Shown here: positions 6,453 to 26,993 of the stretch, in pieces
Numbering within the stretch: the stretch's first letter is position 1
How the letters are laid out: each line of letters begins with the position of its first letter
Source: Candidatus Iainarchaeum sp.
GTDB lineage: Archaea; Iainarchaeota; Iainarchaeia; Iainarchaeales; GCA-2688035
NCBI GenBank assembly: GCA_028713935.1
Contig: JAQTNI010000005.1
Location: forward strand, 7,582-39,581
DNA length: 32,000 nt
Direction of reading: 5' to 3'
Notes under the pieces: generated by a model
Databases searched by the model: none
What the model was told of the DNA's origin: nothing
The model's input: only the letters and a program-made list of their open reading frames with translations
Position numbers and translations under genes: made by a program

Positions 6453-7412
6453 TCAGGCTTGCGGCGCATAATACACTTTTTCTATTTTGAATATTGTTAT
6501 CCAGCTGAATTCTTTTATTATTTCCGGGAATTTTTGGCGGATTTCCCTCATAAGCTCGTGGAACTCTTTCGGGGTTTGCAGCATTGCTTCAAACTCGAGG
6601 TCTGAAACCCCAATTGCTTCTGTTACAAACATTACATTTGTTTTTGATTTTAAATAAGAAATCAGCCTTGAATATTTTTCTTCGGAAAGATTCTGCAGGC
6701 GCAGAAAAACCTTGTGCCAGGTATAGCCGATTTTTGAATAATCAAGCATGATCATATACCCAAGAATGAATTTATTTTTTTCAAGATTTTTTATCCTGTA
6801 TCTGGCTGCCTTGTCTGAAATGCCAAGCTGCTTTGCCATTTCAACAAGGGAAGTGCGGCTGTTCTTTGCAAGAACCTGCAGAATTTTTTCATCAACAGCA
6901 TCTATTTCAGAGCGCGAAAATTTTTGCTCCATCACAAGTTCATGCAGTGTTTTTTCTTTTGTAAGATACCTGTGCGAAATGTGGTGTGCCCTGACAATAA
7001 AAGAAATATCCACTTCTTTAAGGAAAGCCCCAAAATTAAAATTGAGCTCTTTCAATGCATTGTCAAAATCTTTCAAATCCTTTGACCAGAAAACCATTGC
7101 CATGTCATATGCGCCGTCAGTTTTCAGGACCCAGCCTGCATCGGGCATTTTCAGGCAGAATTTTATGATTTCATCTTCATTGTAACTGCCCTGCAGCTTA
7201 ATCCAGAGCCTTGCACTCAGCCTCTGCAGCCTGAAAATATCAATCACTGCATAATAACCAAGAATTATTTTTTCATGCTCAAGCTTCTCAAGGCGCTTCT
7301 TGACAGCCTGCTTTGAAAGCCTGACTTTTTTCGCAAGCGCAGAAACAGGCTGCCTTGAATCAATATCCAGCTCAACGAGAAGGCGCCTGTCTATTAAGTC
7401 CAAACCAAGCAT
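6453..7412 (-). CDS. Tandem-fused double Lrp/AsnC-family transcriptional regulator (two HTH + ligand-domain modules)
   Basis: Module 1 is IDRRLLVELDIDSRQPVSALAKKVRLSKQAVKKRLEKLEHEKIILGY. Module 2 is VDEKILQVLAKNSRTSLVEMAKQLGISDKAARYRIKNLEKNKFILGY. Each is followed by an ~80-aa alpha/beta domain. Confidence 0.85.
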   Translation of the reverse strand: MLGLDLIDRRLLVELDIDSRQPVSALAKKVRLSKQAVKKRLEKLEHEKIILGYYAVIDIFRLQRLSARLWIKLQGSYNEDEIIKFCLKMPDAGWVLKTDGAYDMAMVFWSKDLKDFDNALKELNFNFGAFLKEVDISFIVRAHHISHRYLTKEKTLHELVMEQKFSRSEIDAVDEKILQVLAKNSRTSLVEMAKQLGISDKAARYRIKNLEKNKFILGYMIMLDYSKIGYTWHKVFLRLQNLSEEKYSRLISYLKSKTNVMFVTEAIGVSDLEFEAMLQTPKEFHELMREIRQKFPEIIKEFSWITIFKIEKVYYAPQA

Positions 7413-7454
7413 AAATTAACAATTGTAAAAATCTATTAATAAATTTTTCCTTTT

Positions 7455-7476
7455 ATTCTTAAAATTCTTAAAAATT
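7455..7476 (+). promoter_or_regulatory. Tandem perfect 9-mers TTCTTAAAA x2 (TATA-like or Lrp operator) in the divergent promoter region
   Basis: Copies at 7456-7464 and 7465-7473, about 45 nt upstream of the first micro-ORF ATG. Archaeal TATA boxes are A/T-rich octamers near -26. Confidence 0.35.
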
Positions 7477-7517
7477 ATTATTAATGTGGCAAGCAGCTAT
7501 TAGTAGGTGGTGGTAAT

Positions 7518-7598
7518 ATGCAGAAGTGGATAACTGGCACTGTGGCAAAAAGGCACTGTAAAAATAAAACCAGTGGAGGCTGTTGTTCAAATCTTTAA
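7518..7598 (+). CDS. Micro-ORF A, 26 aa: MQKWITGTVAKRHCKNKTSGGCCSNL (candidate precursor peptide)
   Basis: ATG is preceded by GGTGGTGGTAAT, a strong SD-like motif. It is paralogous to micro-ORFs B-D. Its 3' end is homologous to ORF C at nucleotide level (AGTGG.GG...TGTTCAAAT.T.TAA). Confidence 0.5.
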   Translation: MQKWITGTVAKRHCKNKTSGGCCSNL

Positions 7599-7620
7599 AC
7601 GCAAAACTTGGGGTGAAAAA

Positions 7621-7704
7621 ATGGAAAAGAACTGGATTAAGAATACTTCAAAGAAAAGAGTATCTGCTTGCAAAACTCACGGCGGCATGGCTCCTCTTGT
7701 TTAG
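7621..7704 (+). CDS. Micro-ORF B, 27 aa: MEKNWIKNTSKKRVSACKTHGGMAPLV (candidate precursor peptide)
   Basis: ATG is preceded by GGGGTGAAAAA, the same SD type as the thermosome, Alba and SIMPL genes. It shares the N-terminal K-(N)-W-I, the basic middle and the GG motif. Confidence 0.5.
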   Translation: MEKNWIKNTSKKRVSACKTHGGMAPLV

Positions 7705-7712
7705 GCGATTGT

Positions 7713-7790
7713 ATGGAATGGATTGAATTCAAGAAATGCGAGAGAAACCTCAAGCAAAAGAGTGGCGGCGGGTTCTGTTCAAATTGTTAA
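7713..7790 (+). CDS. Micro-ORF C, 25 aa: MEWIEFKKCERNLKQKSGGGFCSNC (candidate precursor peptide)
   Basis: It starts 8 nt after the ORF B stop, with a weak SD (AGGCGA). The SGGGFCSNC tail is paralogous to SGGCCSNL of ORF A. Confidence 0.45.
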   Translation: MEWIEFKKCERNLKQKSGGGFCSNC

Positions 7791-7799
7791 GTGGAACTT

Positions 7800-7889
7800 A
7801 TGAAAAAATGGGTTAAAGGCTTGCTTGCTGAAAGGCAGAAGAAATCTGATAATAAAAGGTATGCGTCTGCATCAGATATCAGGTTATAG
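7800..7889 (+). CDS. Micro-ORF D, 29 aa: MKKWVKGLLAERQKKSDNKRYASASDIRL (divergent family member)
   Basis: It starts 9 nt after the ORF C stop. It shares the MKKWVKG N-terminus with ORF A (MQKWITG) but lacks the GG/Cys tail. Confidence 0.35.
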   Translation: MKKWVKGLLAERQKKSDNKRYASASDIRL

Positions 7890-7943
7890 CAGCACAGAAA
7901 TCTGAAAATAGTGCCGGCTTTTTTTTTCAATCAAGGATTTTCA

Positions 7944-9521
7944 ATGAAATGCATTTTGGTCCGTTTAAAGGACAATCGCAGCAGTGACGTTCTCTATTTT
8001 CCAAAAGTGGAAAGCCTTGCAATTGGATATCTTGCAGGTTACCTGCGCGCTAATTCTTTTGAAGCTGCAATTGTTGATGAAGAGCTTTCAGGCTCTTCAA
8101 GAGAGCAAACAATAAGACAATTGCGGGATTCTGATTTGATTGGTTTTACTGCAATAGCAAAAACACAGATTTTTCAGGTAATCGAAACAACCAAAGAGCT
8201 GAAAAAGAGCAGGTGCAATGCCCATATTTCAATTGGCGGGCATTATCCGAGTTTCTTGCATAAAGAACTTCTTTCCTTGAAAAATACTTTTGATTCTGTT
8301 GTAAGGTTTGAAGGCGAAGAAACTTTTTCAGAGCTTGCAGAGGCAATCGAAGAAAAAAAAGCCTTTTCTGGAATCAAAGGGCTTGCCTTCAAGCAAAATG
8401 GAAAGATAATTGAAAATGGATTGAGACCGCTTATTGAAGACCTTGATTCTGTTCCTTTTCCTGCAAGGGACACTTTGCCAATGGTTTTGGAACAGGGAGG
8501 GTTGCCTGTAATTTCTTCCAGCAGAGGCTGTTATAACAGCTGCAGTTATTGCTCTATCAGCAGTTTTTACTCTGCTCCTGGCGGAAAACAATTCAGGACA
8601 AGAAGTGCGGAAAACGTTTTGGCAGAGCTTAGCGAATTAAAACAAAATTTTCCCGCAATGAATGAAATCTGGTTTGTAGATGATAATTTTGTAATGCCTG
8701 GAAGCAAAGGATTAGAGAGAACAGTCAAACTCTGCAAAGGCATAAAAAATCTTGGCCTGGAATTCCAGATTTACTTGCGCGCCAACCACATCAACAAAAA
8801 ATTGCTGTGCCTGCTTAAGGCAAGCGGCCTGCAAAATATTTTTATTGGCGCCGAGGCAGCAAATGATTTTACTTTGCAGGCTCTTTTCAACAAAAATATT
8901 TCTGTGGAGCAAACCCGCAAAGCAATAAAACTGTGCAATCAAATGAAAATCAGCATTGACCCCGGCTTTATAATGTTTCATCCCTGGAGCACAATGAAAG
9001 AAATAGAAGAAAACATAAAATTCTTGGAAGAAACAAAACAATTCACTCTTTATGGCATTGCAAGCTTTCTCACGCCTTATTCCTTTACCCCAATTGGCAA
9101 AAAAATGCTCAGCAAAGAATTGGCCTACAAAAAGCCGGCTGTTCTGCCTGCACAGAAACTCAATGATTTTGTGCCTTATGAAATAATGAACGAAAAAGCA
9201 GAATTGTTGCTTTGCCTTACTCTGGATGCTTTCGAAGAATTCAGCCGACTGCCAAAAATTTTTTCAAAACTAAAGCAAAAAATAAGGAAGCTAAAATCTG
9301 AAAAAAATCAAGATGCGATTGTGCTTGAAAAAAAATGGCTTTTTGAAATCAAAAAAATGAACCAGTCAGGAATGCGCTTTTTCAAGGAATTGTTTTTTTT
9401 CATCAAGGCAGCAGAGTTAAGCGACAATGAAATAAAGCCTTTTTTTGAAAAATTCAGGGCAAGAATCAAGGCAGAAATTGAAGAAACAGCAAAAGGGCTG
9501 GAAGAACTGGTTAACAACTAA
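7944..9521 (+). CDS. Class B radical SAM enzyme (N-terminal B12-binding-like domain + radical SAM core + helical C-terminal extension)
   Basis: The N-terminal Rossmann-like region (LIGFTAIAKTQ...ISIGGHYPS...VVRFEGEETF) is typical of the cobalamin-binding domain. It is followed by the CxxxCxxC motif SSSRGCYNSCSYCS. ATG at 7944 (MKCILV) is preferred over GTG at 7911. Confidence 0.85.
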   Translation: MKCILVRLKDNRSSDVLYFPKVESLAIGYLAGYLRANSFEAAIVDEELSGSSREQTIRQLRDSDLIGFTAIAKTQIFQVIETTKELKKSRCNAHISIGGHYPSFLHKELLSLKNTFDSVVRFEGEETFSELAEAIEEKKAFSGIKGLAFKQNGKIIENGLRPLIEDLDSVPFPARDTLPMVLEQGGLPVISSSRGCYNSCSYCSISSFYSAPGGKQFRTRSAENVLAELSELKQNFPAMNEIWFVDDNFVMPGSKGLERTVKLCKGIKNLGLEFQIYLRANHINKKLLCLLKASGLQNIFIGAEAANDFTLQALFNKNISVEQTRKAIKLCNQMKISIDPGFIMFHPWSTMKEIEENIKFLEETKQFTLYGIASFLTPYSFTPIGKKMLSKELAYKKPAVLPAQKLNDFVPYEIMNEKAELLLCLTLDAFEEFSRLPKIFSKLKQKIRKLKSEKNQDAIVLEKKWLFEIKKMNQSGMRFFKELFFFIKAAELSDNEIKPFFEKFRARIKAEIEETAKGLEELVNN

Positions 9522-9606
9522 GTTTGTTCCAGAATTTTTGCAACGTGCCATTTTTATTTTTTTGGTATCTTCTTTGCTTTATCTTCTCATTGATAGGGGC
9601 AATTAA

Positions 9607-10068
9607 ATGAAGCTGACTTTCGTTGAGTTTCAAGGGGAAATTCCAGATATTGCGGCAGCTACTCTTGCTGCAATATCATACGACTCCAGAAATATTTCTC
9701 AGCCTCCTGAAGGAGCATTTAAACTTATTTCAAAAAGCATACAAGACAGGCTTGGAGCGGACAGTCATCTGAGAATAGCATTAGCAATGGATACTGATGT
9801 TCCAAAGCCGAATCCGGTTGGTTATATCGAGTATTCCGTGATTGACGGCAAAGTTTTTGCGCATGCGCGATATGTGCGTGGTGAAGGCAAGTCTTTTGGG
9901 ATTGTAAAAAAAAGACTGTTAGAACACATACGAAGACAGGGCGAGTTTCACTGTTGGACTCAAACCATAACTGGCAGGCGTGCTTTTCGTGCTGCTGAAT
10001 TAAGATTAGAACGAAAGCAAAAACGGGAACAAAGGAAAAGGTTCCCCCTGGGAAGGCGCCCCATATAG
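9607..10068 (+). CDS. Hypothetical protein, 153 aa, possible GNAT-like fold with an Arg/Lys-rich C-terminus
   Basis: AGGGG lies 8 nt upstream of the ATG. VRGEGKSFGIVKKRLLEHI loosely resembles the acetyl-CoA motif A (R-x-x-G-x-G/A). GC looks higher than in neighbouring genes. Family call is weak. Confidence 0.45.
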   Translation: MKLTFVEFQGEIPDIAAATLAAISYDSRNISQPPEGAFKLISKSIQDRLGADSHLRIALAMDTDVPKPNPVGYIEYSVIDGKVFAHARYVRGEGKSFGIVKKRLLEHIRRQGEFHCWTQTITGRRAFRAAELRLERKQKREQRKRFPLGRRPI

Positions 10069-11269: not shown

Positions 11270-11344
11270 ACAGCCACTTTCCCAATATCAATTATAATCG
11301 GAAGAGTTTTAAAAAAGAAAGCCCCTTACTTTAGCGTGGTTTAA

Positions 11345-11572
11345 ATGGAATGTTATTCTCCCACAAAACTCGGCGCACTGGCTTATGCAGTTGTTTTGAC
11401 AGTTGCTGCAGTAATTGTCCTTGCAGTTGCAAGATACTTGCTTGCAAAGCCAATTCTCACAATAGACCTTGCAGCCACAGCCGCAATTGTGTTCATAATA
11501 GGCTTCGCAGTGCAATGGTATATGCAGGCACGCTGCTGCAAAAGCCCTTCAAAAACAAAGGCAAAAGAATAA
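11345..11572 (+). CDS. Small two-TM membrane protein, 75 aa
   Basis: There are two clear hydrophobic helices (LGALAYAVVLTVAAVIVLAVA and AATAAIVFIIGFAVQWY) and a basic C-terminus. It competes with a Cys-rich antisense ORF. Confidence 0.45.
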   Translation: MECYSPTKLGALAYAVVLTVAAVIVLAVARYLLAKPILTIDLAATAAIVFIIGFAVQWYMQARCCKSPSKTKAKE

Positions 11573-11599: not shown

Positions 11600-11821
11600 T
11601 CAAATTAATTTCAGGAATTCTTCTTTTGAGAGCCCTGCTTGTTTTATTATTGCCAACAGGGTTCCCGGTGCAATTGTTTTGTGGTTTGGAACAGTTACTC
11701 TTCGGAAAGGCATTTTGTTTTCCCTGAGAATGAAATGGCTGCCTGTTTGATGATCAACTTCAAAACAAACTTTGCCTAGTGCTTTTACAATTTTTAATCC
11801 CGGTAAAACAGGCAATTTCAT
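11600..11821 (-). CDS. hicA: HicA-family mRNA interferase toxin
   Basis: LKIVKALGKVCFEVDHQTGSHFILRE...VPNHKTIAPGTLLAIIKQAGLSKEEF is typical of HicA/YcfA, including the G-S-H motif. Confidence 0.85.
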   Translation of the reverse strand: MKLPVLPGLKIVKALGKVCFEVDHQTGSHFILRENKMPFRRVTVPNHKTIAPGTLLAIIKQAGLSKEEFLKLI

Positions 11822-11855: not shown

Positions 11856-12071
11856 TTAAACAGAAATTGCTTCAATTTGCACAAATCGTTCAAAAACTTT
11901 TTCTTCCGGGTGTTTTTTCAGGCTTTCGAGATAACCCAAAACAGCATCCTTGATATTCAAAAGCGCCTGTGCTTTTGTTTTTCCCTGGGAAATGCAGCCA
12001 GGCAGGTTTGGTACTTCTGCAACAAACCAGCCGGTTTCAGAATCCTTAGTCAAAACAACCTTGAAATCCAT
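11856..12071 (-). CDS. hicB: HicB-family antitoxin (UPF0150 fold)
   Basis: FKVVLTKDSETGWFVAEVPNLPGCISQGKTKAQALLNIKDAVLGYLES is typical of the HicB N-terminal domain. It lies directly upstream of hicA. ATG at 12071 is preferred over GTG at 12080. Confidence 0.8.
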   Translation of the reverse strand: MDFKVVLTKDSETGWFVAEVPNLPGCISQGKTKAQALLNIKDAVLGYLESLKKHPEEKVFERFVQIEAISV

Positions 12072-12113
12072 ATTTATCACTATAAATATAATTCCCTAAG
12101 CGGCTATAAAAAC

Positions 12114-24673: not shown

Positions 24674-24824
24674 AACAAAATCAACCCTTTCAATTCATTA
24701 ATTCAATAATCAATAAACCTAATAGATTATTATACTGGTTAGGAATAAAAATAATAGTGTTTAAGCCTTTCGAAGCGCTCGCTGATGCTCGCTTTCGAAA
24801 ATCTTGGAAAACTAAGTGTTTGGC

Positions 24825-25835
24825 ATGGAAACAGAAAAACTAATGAAAACTGCTTCCCACGCAGTTCTGCTCGTTGTTTTGGTGCTGGTCCTGCTTGGAA
24901 TTCTCACCTGGACAGGTGTTTTGAGGCCAAGCCAGGTCCCAGTAGTTGGAAAAGCCTGGTGCAGTGTTTACTGGGGAGTAATGGGTTATTCCACTGGCGG
25001 CCCAAAAGTGCTTATTGTTTATGGCGATGACGGCCTTGGAAATCCAGATGGCCCTTGCGAAGCAGGCCTGCAGCAATGCAGCCTGAAAGAAATTCTTGCA
25101 AACCCAGAAATTTTAGGGGTAAGGGCTGACACAATGCGCTTAAGCAGCGTGAATCTCGGCAACCTTAAAAGTTACAGCCTTGTAATTGTTGAAAAAGCAA
25201 AAACAATGGAAACAAAATATATGCGGGCTTTCATTGATTATTATGCACAAGGAGGAAGATTAGTCTGGACAGGAGATGCAGGAACAGAACTGGGGCATGA
25301 TGATGAATATTTGTATACAAATGAAAGAAGCGAAACAGACGCAAACCAGATAATAGGGCCATGGGCGCGCAAGCAGGGCGATGTGGCTGTTTCACTTGAC
25401 CAATTGCTTTCAGTGGAATACACTGCAAATTACTGCACAATAAAAACCTGCCCAGCAGGCCAGGCAATTTATGTTGGAAAATTATCCCCTGAACCAACCG
25501 GAACACACCCGCTTATTTTTGGAATGGGCAATAATCTCCCACTGTATGTTTTCAAAGATGAGGATTTTTCAGTTGTAGAAACAATTGCAGGCGGAATAAC
25601 AACACAAGCCCTTACTCTTGATGTCCAATCAAACCTCGTGGGAACAAACGGCAAGGATTATGGAAACCAGCTTCCCCTGATTGTTGCAAGCGGAATGGGA
25701 GACAGGGCAGTTTACTATGCCTTGCCACCAGAATACTATGCAAACCCAAAGCTTTACAATTCCACAAAGCCAGGAACTCCAGGCCCGTATTTTTTGCCAA
25801 TAGAAAATTTGTACTATGGCATGATTTGCGGATAA
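24825..25835 (+). CDS. N-terminally membrane-anchored extracytoplasmic protein with a flavodoxin/GATase1-like (ThuA/DUF4159-like) module
   Basis: The TM helix is HAVLLVVLVLVLLGILTW. KVLIVYGDD...YSLVIVEKAKTM...FIDYYAQGGRLVWTGDAG fits the strand-helix pattern of class-I-amidotransferase-like sensor/anchor domains. ATG at 24825 is preferred. Confidence 0.6.
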   Translation: METEKLMKTASHAVLLVVLVLVLLGILTWTGVLRPSQVPVVGKAWCSVYWGVMGYSTGGPKVLIVYGDDGLGNPDGPCEAGLQQCSLKEILANPEILGVRADTMRLSSVNLGNLKSYSLVIVEKAKTMETKYMRAFIDYYAQGGRLVWTGDAGTELGHDDEYLYTNERSETDANQIIGPWARKQGDVAVSLDQLLSVEYTANYCTIKTCPAGQAIYVGKLSPEPTGTHPLIFGMGNNLPLYVFKDEDFSVVETIAGGITTQALTLDVQSNLVGTNGKDYGNQLPLIVASGMGDRAVYYALPPEYYANPKLYNSTKPGTPGPYFLPIENLYYGMICG

Positions 25836-25862: not shown

Positions 25863-26993
25863 ATGAAAATCTTTCCAAATGTGCCAATTGTTTACAAAAA
25901 CAATTTTCCAAAAAATTTTGTTAATGATGTGAACGGCTGGGGCTTTTCAAAAAAAGAACTGGCAGAAAACAAGGGAAAAATTCTTACTCTTGACATTGAT
26001 TTTGGAAATTCCTGCAGCCTTAATTGCCCCCACTGTTTCAGAAAAAACAACAAAGTTGATTCTGAAAAAAACAATCTGCTGAAATATGAGGATATAATTG
26101 GTATTATTAACCAGGCAAAAAAGCTTGGCCTGAAAACAGTGAAATTTTTGGGAGCTGGAGAGCCCTTTGAAAGCCCAAGGTTTTTGGAGTTTCTCGGATT
26201 TCTAAAAAAGTCAAATGTCACTCCGCTTATTTTTACAAAAGGCCATGTAATCGGCGATGACTCGCTTGTAAAAAAATATTATTCCCAGTATGGGCTTGAA
26301 ACAGGCACTGCTCTTATTGAAGAACTAAAAAAAGTGAATGCCAGCATTCTGCTTGGCTTCAATTCTTTTGACACTGAAATTCAGGACAAAATGGTTGGCG
26401 GAATAAAGGGATACACTTTGAAAAGAAACCGTGCCCTGGAATTGCTTGCAGAAGCGGGCTTTAACAAAAACCCGGTAAGAATTGCCTTGATTGCAACGCC
26501 AATAACAAAAACGAATTATTCTGAAATCTTTGAAATTTATTCATGGGCAAGGCAAAGGAATTTGTATATTGTTACCACACCCACAATGATTAGCGGCAGA
26601 TGCTCAAGAGGCGCTGCATGGAAAAAAATAACTCCTTCAAAAAAAGAGCTTGTTGATTTATACGCAAAAATTTACAAATTCAATATTGAAAAAGGAATCC
26701 AGACTCTGGAACAAATAAAAGAAGAAGGAATTTCAGCTTATGCAGGAGTCCATCCCTGTAACCAGGTTGCCTGCGGAATGTATGTTACACTAACAGGAAC
26801 TGTTTTGAGATGCCCTGGCGACGATACAACTGTGCTTGGAAATGTCAGGCAGGAATCCCTCAAGGAAATATGGGAAAAATCCGAGAATTACAAAAGAGCG
26901 GGGATGTTCAATTGTGGCTGCCCTCCAAAGCAAGGCAAATCAATTCCAAAAAATTTCTACTCTGATGTGCTAAAAAAATTGCAAAAAAATTAA
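25863..26993 (+). CDS. Radical SAM enzyme with a C-terminal SPASM/twitch-like Cys cluster
   Basis: CxxxCxxC is in DFGNSCSLNCPHCF. The C-terminal part has CGMYVTLTGTVLRC (a C-x(n)-G-x4-C half-motif) plus FNCGCPP, six Cys in total. AGGTGA lies 5 nt upstream of the ATG, and the gap to the upstream gene is only 27 nt. Confidence 0.85.
   Translation: MKIFPNVPIVYKNNFPKNFVNDVNGWGFSKKELAENKGKILTLDIDFGNSCSLNCPHCFRKNNKVDSEKNNLLKYEDIIGIINQAKKLGLKTVKFLGAGEPFESPRFLEFLGFLKKSNVTPLIFTKGHVIGDDSLVKKYYSQYGLETGTALIEELKKVNASILLGFNSFDTEIQDKMVGGIKGYTLKRNRALELLAEAGFNKNPVRIALIATPITKTNYSEIFEIYSWARQRNLYIVTTPTMISGRCSRGAAWKKITPSKKELVDLYAKIYKFNIEKGIQTLEQIKEEGISAYAGVHPCNQVACGMYVTLTGTVLRCPGDDTTVLGNVRQESLKEIWEKSENYKRAGMFNCGCPPKQGKSIPKNFYSDVLKKLQKN

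Follow-up and report, generated by a model that had tools for sequence, protein, structure and literature searches.

A 32,000-nt stretch of contig JAQTNI010000005.1 from Candidatus Iainarchaeum sp. (assembly GCA_028713935.1; the window in the following) encodes, within positions 6453-10068, four very short peptides (p1 to p4) followed by a cobalamin-type radical S-adenosylmethionine (SAM) enzyme, and the gene of a tandem Lrp/AsnC-family protein is located divergently from them (Table 1). With a probability of roughly 60%, we regard these genes as a minimal, chromosomally inherited peptide-modification module of the Iainarchaeia clade (Diapherotrites, DPANN), in which a leader-guided class B radical SAM enzyme would modify the cores of the peptides. 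The comparison of orthologous loci makes it well supported that peptides, enzyme, and regulator form a functional module. The public protein collection contains none of p1 to p4, which are thus unannotated.

Orthologous loci were collected from genomes and metagenomes and through look-ups of identical proteins, resulting in 25 copies that represent 19 distinct loci, the window included. One to five small open reading frames (ORFs) are located directly upstream of the enzyme gene, and on the same strand, in every distinct locus having upstream DNA (19/19), with enzyme identities ranging from 45 to 85%. The first-pass annotation, which had proposed a peptide-tailoring cluster from the letters of the window, had named orthologs without adjacent peptides and peptides without conservation as observations speaking against its proposal. 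Neither was encountered: leader-sharing peptides accompany the enzyme in all 19 distinct loci, and their conservation extends to each of the orthologous loci. The ORF nearest to the enzyme contains the motif [KQ]R[HY]AS[AVS][STAP][DN] in 25 of the 25 copies, typically as KRHASASDH and in p4 of the window as KRYASASDIRL. A six-frame search of 161 sequences (1.2 Mb) found this motif, which defines what we call type A peptides, in the 25 copies alone; the 136 further loci lack it.

The codons of the type A motif vary. Serine codons switch between TCT/TCA and AGT/AGC, and the GCN, CAY, GAY, and AGR codons of alanine, histidine, aspartate, and arginine differ between loci in their third position, with the amino acids being kept. 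The cores of the remaining peptides, which we term types B and C, are likewise found in further genomes, where their codons differ synonymously. Type B cores like that of p1 are found with synonymous changes and preceding Shine-Dalgarno motifs in L004, L005, L155, and L156, the ..APLV end of p2 is found in L065 (PACAPLV; upstream Shine-Dalgarno motif GGGGTGA), and GGFCSN of p3 is present in L005 and L155 with differing codons (GGC/GGA/GGG, TTC/TTT, TGT/TGC, TCA/TCT/TCC, AAT/AAC). A GGTG/GAGG Shine-Dalgarno motif lies ahead of each peptide ORF. The type C ORFs of L004 (1451-1528), L005, L065, and L156 end with ...AGG TGA, so that the last codon and the stop codon together serve the following ORF as its Shine-Dalgarno motif (AGGTGA), a sign of translational coupling inside the operon. 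Because the codons change synonymously while the amino acids are kept, and because Shine-Dalgarno motifs are present, the alignments show the peptide ORFs to be translated and under purifying selection, and not to be a DNA or RNA motif.

The peptide family is rare. Profile searches with a 67-aa long-form peptide as first sequence resulted in 13 peptide matches in 5.8 billion proteins and in 10 (representative clusters) in 1.84 billion, all of them 32-76 aa long; the latter search also gave one spurious match of 1055 aa. Those matched peptides that are on contigs long enough for inspection all adjoin the enzyme.

When anchored on their N-terminal parts, 31 peptides from the orthologous loci can be aligned without any gap. 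The putative leader has a tryptophan at position 0 (phenylalanine in the long-form subgroup), isoleucine or leucine at position 1, a hydrophobic residue at position 4, lysine or glutamate at position 7, arginine at position 8, glutamine at position 9, and lysine at position 11. A spacer of eight residues precedes the cores. The peptides p1 and p2 share this leader register (W0/R8) with the whole family. A conserved leader and a variable core beside a modifying enzyme characterise the precursors of RiPPs (peptides made on the ribosome and modified after translation), and here peptides of this build adjoin the radical SAM enzyme in 19 of the 19 loci.

The cores belong to three types. Type A has R[H/Y] at positions 16-17 followed by A-S-A-S-D-H, is always present, and is always nearest to the enzyme. 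In type B, G-G at positions 16-17 precedes C-C-S-N-L, F-C-S-N-[CLF], C-C-P-N-F, C-R-S-S-R-L, or similar residues, and type C consists of P-A-D-M-(P/S)-x-R or of G-G-M-A-P-L-V / A-C-A-P-L-V. Where several types co-occur, the order is always B, C, A, and enzyme. A subgroup of long-form type A peptides with 62-67 aa and an extended N-terminus, whose enzymes are 50-54% identical, has kept the segment GFLELVVAEAQ...EKRHASATDH. The first-pass annotation had seen the GG-CCSNL peptides as the defining type, which has to be revised: the universal partner of the enzyme is the type A peptide, p4 in the window, which has no GG-CCSNL, and the type B GG-C peptides are accessory and absent from many loci. 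Its suggestion of leader cleavage after GG is not supported either, as type A peptides have R[H/Y] there and neither a C39 peptidase nor an ABC (ATP-binding cassette) exporter is conserved nearby. The peptides do not fit the double-glycine leaders of class II bacteriocins; GG at positions 16-17 is restricted to type B peptides and p2 of the window, and C39 peptidase/ABC genes are missing in every locus.

The start of the enzyme was assigned to ATG 7944 (MKCILVRL) and not to GTG 7911 of the longest ORF, because the alignment with 20 orthologs agrees in this with the length of the public protein P0001, a 100% identical protein of 525 aa from a Candidatus Iainarchaeum metagenome-assembled genome (MAG). 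With the enzyme starting at 7944, the gap from the stop codon of p4 (7887-7889) is exactly 54 nt. The B12-binding domain (PF02310) scores 57.7 bits at a cut-off of 32.1 and covers residues 34-142 of the translation from the GTG start (7911-9521), and the Radical_SAM domain (PF04055) scores 60.6 bits at a cut-off of 29.5. The three cysteines of the CxxxCxxC motif (CYNSCSYC; C198, C202, and C205) are invariant across 21 aligned orthologs. In the AlphaFold2 (AF2) model (predicted local distance difference test, pLDDT, 91.3), a beta/alpha Rossmann domain and a barrel are followed by three long C-terminal helices comprising about residues 417-524 of the 525-aa protein (model residues 419-526). The first of these helices and the segment preceding it are highly conserved among the orthologs (VPYEIxDxxAELLLCLTLxAFEEF, about residues 409-433) and may be the surface that binds the leader; the recognition role that the first-pass annotation had considered for the C-terminal extension is likewise hypothetical. 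A RiPP recognition element (RRE) or PqqD-like domain was not found in the enzyme, neither as Pfam match at E <= 0.01 nor as a winged helix in the AF2 model.

Family placement relied on hidden Markov model (HMM) scores against curated cut-offs. In the NCBIfam scan, every model stayed below its cut-off: HpnJ (TIGR03471) with 138 bits against 577.6, BchE (TIGR02026) with 126 against 481, ApyD (NF050148) with 122 against 750, the lipid B12 radical SAM family with 104 against 360, PhpK with 103 against 600, MgmA (TIGR04014) with 69.8 against 360, and rSAM_ocin_1 (TIGR03975) with 59.6 against 281.85. The enzyme is therefore, by its sequence, a class B radical SAM protein of no described family, and its scores do not lead into any family of known non-peptide function, a possibility the first-pass annotation had raised as a counter-argument. 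The closest solved structure is OxsB (TMq, from the template modelling (TM) score, 0.73), followed by TsrM, CysS, AprD4, TokK, and MgmA, and all structural neighbours are cobalamin radical SAM proteins.

The enzyme has about 29 close relatives with 45-85% identity, all of which come from MAGs of the Iainarchaeia/Diapherotrites type or from metagenomes. In one of these loci (L159 1569-3115, from an NCBI MAG), gene calling splits the radical SAM gene into three pieces (79, 242, and 166 aa) next to an intact long-form peptide and an intact tandem Lrp gene; the fragmented gene could be a pseudogene or the result of an assembly or frameshift error. The closest non-orthologs are proteins of about 550 aa from a bacterial sister clade (P0031, P0034, P0036; Deltaproteobacteria MAGs), which are 34-36% identical over more than 90% of the length. 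The conserved bacterial gene cluster (L145-L149) also holds a 1358-aa protein without Pfam domain and a 271-aa protein. A Woesearchaeota locus with a 28% identical protein (L020), inspected for peptide arrays, has another context with a carbamoyltransferase and further radical SAM genes.

The divergently encoded protein contains two stretches of the AsnC-type helix-turn-helix (HTH; PF13404, 78.7 bits) in its 319-aa ORF. The AF2 model (pLDDT 93.6) accordingly consists of two halves in a single chain, each with an HTH and an alpha/beta-sandwich (beta-alpha-beta-beta-alpha-beta), and each half matches DNA-binding archaeal Lrp/AsnC proteins (PH0061, PH1519, LrpA) with 20-28% identity and a TMt of about 0.85. 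The sole structural match over the full length is the fused siroheme decarboxylase NirDL with 12% identity and a TM score of 0.64-0.67. HMM scores are highest for regulators (LysM 82 and LrpA 71 bits versus 24 for AhbA and 18 for AhbB). Wherever the upstream DNA of a locus is long enough, it contains a divergent Lrp ortholog, even at identities of 28-33%. The tandem Lrp is not exclusive to the module: tandem relatives of this length with 27-33% identity are encoded in other DPANN genomes that do not have the enzyme. By this distribution, the tandem Lrp family is a general type of DPANN regulator, of which one branch appears to be dedicated to the operon.

The intergenic region between the Lrp gene and p1 (about 105 nt) has a mean identity of 74% over nine loci with 29 invariant columns, and the palindrome ACAATTGT at 7419-7426 is invariant across the loci compared. 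Two abutting copies of TTCTTAAAA (7456-7464 and 7465-7473) are found inside a partly conserved TTC-N2-AAAA stretch between AT-rich boxes, which could represent two divergent TATA elements, and boxes of this region may serve as an operator. Based on the divergent orientation and the conserved, palindrome-bearing intergenic region, the tandem Lrp presumably controls the adjacent operon. The spacers between the type A ORF and the enzyme are 20-92 nt long across the loci, and together with the conserved control region these short spacers fit one regulated operon. The T9 run between p4 and the enzyme resembles an archaeal oligo-T terminator, yet it is not conserved in other loci and was rejected as terminator or attenuator. 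A riboswitch or other known RNA element was also rejected, because an Rfam scan of 7300-8100 at E <= 1 did not give any match.

The module forms a unit of its own, in which the conserved parts are the Lrp gene, the peptides, and the enzyme. When the ORFs of 14 orthologous loci were compared with the window genes by BLAST, only the tandem Lrp gene and the enzyme recurred, and the flanks, which vary from locus to locus, encode unrelated housekeeping functions (for example tRNA synthetases, Sec61-beta, NAC, and GatB). In one locus, a reverse transcriptase gene (RVT_1; L150 6922-8088, minus strand), possibly of a group II intron, is located just downstream of the module. The first-pass annotation had the architecture largely right: the fused double Lrp/AsnC protein divergent from the array, the four co-directional peptide ORFs ending 54 nt before the enzyme, and the B12-domain radical SAM protein with its CYNSCSYC motif are all present at the positions it had given. 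Its tandem boxes exist as two abutting TTCTTAAAA copies in a conserved intergenic stretch, but the word is not enriched in the window (3 found versus 2.1 expected). Its inclusion of a GNAT-like 153-aa ORF (9607-10068) had to be abandoned. This ORF has no Pfam or NCBIfam match at the thresholds used, forms a singleton cluster among about 15 billion proteins, and is absent from all orthologous loci including L001, whose enzyme is 85% identical and directly followed by a RIO kinase gene. It was rejected as a member of the module; the gene may have been inserted recently or be specific to its lineage. An anti-phage defence function was rejected as well, as PADLOC gave no match for the enzyme and only matches to the HTH parts of Csa3/CasR models for the Lrp protein.

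How could such a module work? The one to five precursor-like peptides and the enzyme would be expressed as one operon, and the divergent tandem Lrp/AsnC protein would regulate both promoters in the shared conserved region. The leader is short and basic and probably forms an amphipathic helix (W0-[I/L]1, L4, [K/E]7-R8-Q9, K11), which would be bound directly by the enzyme without an RRE. By fixing the register, the leader would allow the eight-residue spacer to present positions of about 18-22 to the [4Fe-4S]/SAM/cobalamin site. The presented residues would be A-S-A-S-D in type A, C-C-S-N-L or F-C-S-N-C in type B, and M-A-P-L-V or M-x-P-F-R in type C peptides. There, a 5'-deoxyadenosyl radical and cobalamin would modify an unactivated carbon. 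By analogy with most of the characterised class B enzymes acting on peptides or proteins, ApyD among them, the likeliest chemistry would be one or more C-methylations (+14 Da). The methylases of proteusins, MgmA, and Mmp10 are further analogues for C-methylation. The type A core is near-invariant while the enzyme drifts to 45% identity, and this suggests that the type A product has a conserved physiological role and is not a fast-evolving antimicrobial. Types B and C would be accessory, diversifying substrates.

Several observations weigh against a peptide-modifying enzyme. The link between enzyme and peptides is one of genomic association, and the three core types do not have a target residue in common. 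OxsB, the best structural match, is not a methylase, and methylation is the commonest but not the sole chemistry of class B enzymes. Among the neighbourhoods of the orthologous loci, no conserved protease, exporter, or separate RRE gene was found. In the bacterial sister clade, the enzyme has an ABC transporter of the LivKHMGF (branched-chain-amino-acid) type, two to three UbiE/GNMT-like class I methyltransferases, and an M24 (creatinase/Xaa-Pro) peptidase as neighbours, and these loci have neither a tandem Lrp nor motif-bearing peptides. In addition, a class I methyltransferase is inserted between peptide and enzyme in L157 (3197-3997, plus strand), which shares 28% identity (E = 2e-14) with the methyltransferase that directly precedes a bacterial enzyme (L145 5021-5992, plus strand), and a related methyltransferase (L161 2958-3893, minus strand; 30% identity, E = 3e-12) is encoded divergently from a tandem Lrp in another DPANN genome. 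The bacterial neighbourhood and the shared methyltransferase hint at an amino-acid-like small molecule as ancestral substrate of the enzyme. The same observations favour the view that the enzyme still acts on a small molecule, an amino acid or a derivative, which would fit an Lrp-type regulator, and that the mini-ORFs are translated regulatory leader or arrest peptides (upstream ORFs). In agreement with this, a constant feature of the type A ORF is that only 20-92 nt separate its end from the enzyme gene (in L157, from the inserted methyltransferase), and, like an arrest peptide, it is conserved in its C-terminal part. We nevertheless consider this unlikely. Up to five tandem paralogs share leader and register yet carry three unrelated C-terminal cores, and for this reason we interpret the peptides as substrates and not as arrest or attenuator peptides. 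Runs of a sensed amino acid do not occur in the peptides, the region has no conserved RNA structure or Rfam match, and neither the spacer sequence nor the T-run is conserved. To our knowledge, leader-peptide attenuation is not established in archaea.

The peptides could also be independent small basic proteins, binding nucleic acids or serving as toxins or signals, that are merely co-regulated by the Lrp and never touched by the enzyme. They are indeed very basic (p4 has nine K/R versus three D/E), and a recognition domain could not be identified in the enzyme, but the fixed register of leader and core would be difficult to understand if the peptides had no binding partner in common. In addition, the peptides adjoin the enzyme in the same orientation down to 45% enzyme identity and are absent elsewhere, and translational coupling in one operon is evident, so that this explanation is highly improbable. 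The tandem Lrp might also be a working partner of the enzyme, either as a NirDL/AhbAB-like enzyme acting on a tetrapyrrole or as a stand-in for an RRE that presents the leader. NirDL is its sole full-length structural match, the tetrapyrrole enzyme BchE is the second-best NCBIfam match of the radical SAM protein, and the conservation of the Lrp with the enzyme is no less strict than that of the peptides. The winged-helix fold of RREs would suit a stand-in. However, the identity to NirDL is low, the AhbA/AhbB scores stay well below those of LysM and LrpA, each half resembles DNA-binding archaeal Lrp proteins, relatives are present in DPANN genomes without the enzyme, and a divergent gene next to a conserved intergenic region with a palindrome is the classic arrangement of an autoregulated transcription factor. 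A partnership of this kind is thus very unlikely. That AT-rich intergenic DNA happens to contain the mini-ORFs as open frames by chance might be supposed from their absence in public records and from the many ORFs of 20-30 aa that exist in any frame, but given amino acids kept over 19 loci with synonymous codons, the Shine-Dalgarno motifs, and a motif exclusive to these loci, this is effectively refuted. Finally, within the framework of peptide modification, type A peptides might, instead of becoming a bacteriocin-like product, give rise to a cofactor or a signal inside the cell that is specific to the lineage and derived from the peptide, similar to pyrroloquinoline quinone (PQQ) or mycofactocin but made by a cobalamin-type enzyme, with the Lrp sensing the product or binding the leader. 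We regard this reading as rather unlikely. If true, no such system would have preceded it in DPANN archaea, and organisms with reduced genomes would be investing scavenged B12 in it.

Peptide-modifying radical SAM enzymes are already known, and the modification module proposed here resembles several of them in part. ApyD, the third-best NCBIfam match, likewise belongs to the class B radical SAM enzymes and has a ribosomal peptide as substrate. It beta-methylates a tyrosine near the C-terminus of its peptide in a short conserved motif ending in aspartate (GYLYD) (PMC11117315). Unlike the window enzyme, whose 122 bits are far from the cut-off of 750, ApyD has an RRE and works together with an MNIO enzyme (an oxidative enzyme that depends on multinuclear non-heme iron), a P450, and a methyltransferase. 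The Iainarchaeia module has no RRE or other tailoring enzyme, its peptides are unrelated, and its host is an archaeon. The enzymes of the proteusin type (PoyB/PoyC in polytheonamide biosynthesis; TIGR03975) methylate unactivated carbons of several residue types. They are likewise cobalamin radical SAM enzymes acting on ribosomal peptides, and a tolerance of several residue types would fit the heterogeneous cores observed here. In contrast, their family model gives only 59.6 of 281.85 bits, and their long NHLP (nitrile hydratase leader peptide) or Nif11-type leaders differ from the about 16 residues found here. MgmA, the glutamine C-methyltransferase of methyl-coenzyme M reductase (MCR), and Mmp10 likewise methylate a polypeptide residue and are cobalamin radical SAM enzymes of archaea, and the MgmA structure 9ccb matches the enzyme with a TMt of 0.72 and by sequence profile with E = 1e-10. 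However, their substrate is a large enzyme, the MgmA score is 69.8 against a cut-off of 360 bits, and Iainarchaeia are not methanogens.

OxsB from oxetanocin biosynthesis (PDB 5ul2-5ul4) is the closest structure (Foldseek E = 1e-26; profile E = 3e-35) and has a helical domain after the barrel. It differs in having a nucleotide as substrate, in performing a ring contraction rather than a methylation, and in an extra N-terminal domain, and its identity to the window enzyme is 17%. The pairs PqqA/PqqE and MftA/MftC resemble the type A peptides and their enzyme in that a tiny peptide with a near-invariant C-terminal core is inherited vertically with one radical SAM enzyme. However, the enzymes of PQQ and mycofactocin synthesis are of the SPASM type and need an RRE protein (PqqD/MftB) and further enzymes, none of which are present here. 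We did not find a described counterpart of the module in NCBIfam, Pfam, or the searched literature, and neither the type A motif nor, for this lineage, a cobalamin/radical SAM enzyme is mentioned in the literature searched. While the pairing of a peptide with a radical SAM enzyme is known, what seems to be new are the peptide family, the combination of an RRE-less class B enzyme with a tandem Lrp, the strict three-gene architecture, and the restriction to DPANN archaea.

Table 1. Positions of the module components and of the ORF following them (window coordinates).
Feature	Position	Strand	Description
Tandem Lrp/AsnC-family protein gene	6453..7412	-	319 aa; divergent from peptide operon; presumed regulator (Pfam, AF2)
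Divergent control region	7413..7517	.	Lrp start to p1; palindrome, AT-rich boxes, repeat boxes, p1 Shine-Dalgarno motif
AT-rich TATA-like boxes	within 7413..7517		ATTAATAAAT and TTATTATTAAT
p1 Shine-Dalgarno motif	within 7413..7517	+	GGTGGTGG
Peptide p1	7518..7598	+	26 aa; MQKWITGTVAKRHCKNKTSGGCCSNL; core type B (..TSGG-CCSNL)
Peptide p2	7621..7704	+	27 aa; MEKNWIKNTSKKRVSACKTHGGMAPLV; core type C variant (..HGG-MAPLV)
Peptide p3	7713..7790	+	25 aa; MEWIEFKKCERNLKQKSGGGFCSNC; core type B (..SGGG-FCSNC)
Peptide p4	7800..7889	+	29 aa; MKKWVKGLLAERQKKSDNKRYASASDIRL; core type A (..KRYASASDIRL)
p4-enzyme spacer	7890..7943	+	54 nt; GCCGGC, then T9 run (7913-7927); AAGGA Shine-Dalgarno motif
Class B radical SAM enzyme gene	7944..9521	+	525 aa; B12-binding domain, radical SAM barrel, CYNSCSYC, C-terminal helices
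Orphan ORF	9607..10068	+	153 aa; without family; outside module

The remaining window is ordinary chromosome and encodes, among others, a thermosome, a class I tRNA synthetase, a deoxyhypusine synthase, and a P-type ATPase. It also contains a HicAB pair identified by Pfam, listed in the order HicA toxin (11600-11821, minus strand) and HicB antitoxin (11856-12080, minus strand). The pair is 83-97% identical in locus L001 and is thus conserved at least as well as the radical SAM enzyme. Close to it, a cysteine-rich 68-aa ORF (11309-11515, minus strand) overlaps a hydrophobic 75-aa ORF (11345-11572, plus strand), neither of which has a Pfam family. A further radical SAM enzyme, for which Pfam finds a SPASM domain, is encoded at 25863-26993 (plus strand) downstream of a 339-aa ORF without family (24816-25835, plus strand). 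Its best NCBIfam match is the tungsten-cofactor oxidoreductase maturase with 59 bits versus a cut-off of 380; WgkB and the mycofactocin maturase come next, and none of the three comes near its cut-off. This SPASM enzyme could be another peptide or protein maturase.

In the literature searched, what is known of the biochemistry of ribosomal natural products in archaea is largely that of the haloarchaeal lanthipeptides. The module is compact, with three parts, and nature already offers about 30 variants of the putative substrate; as the leader is clear and the register fixed, the module is amenable to co-expression. Because the enzyme has no RRE, it could reveal a new mode of peptide recognition by class B enzymes, possibly a ruler-like one. 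The case also illustrates how much small-ORF biology is overlooked by automatic annotation. The strict vertical retention of a B12-requiring system in a lineage with small genomes suggests that its product is physiologically important, and this product could bear on interactions with hosts or within the community.

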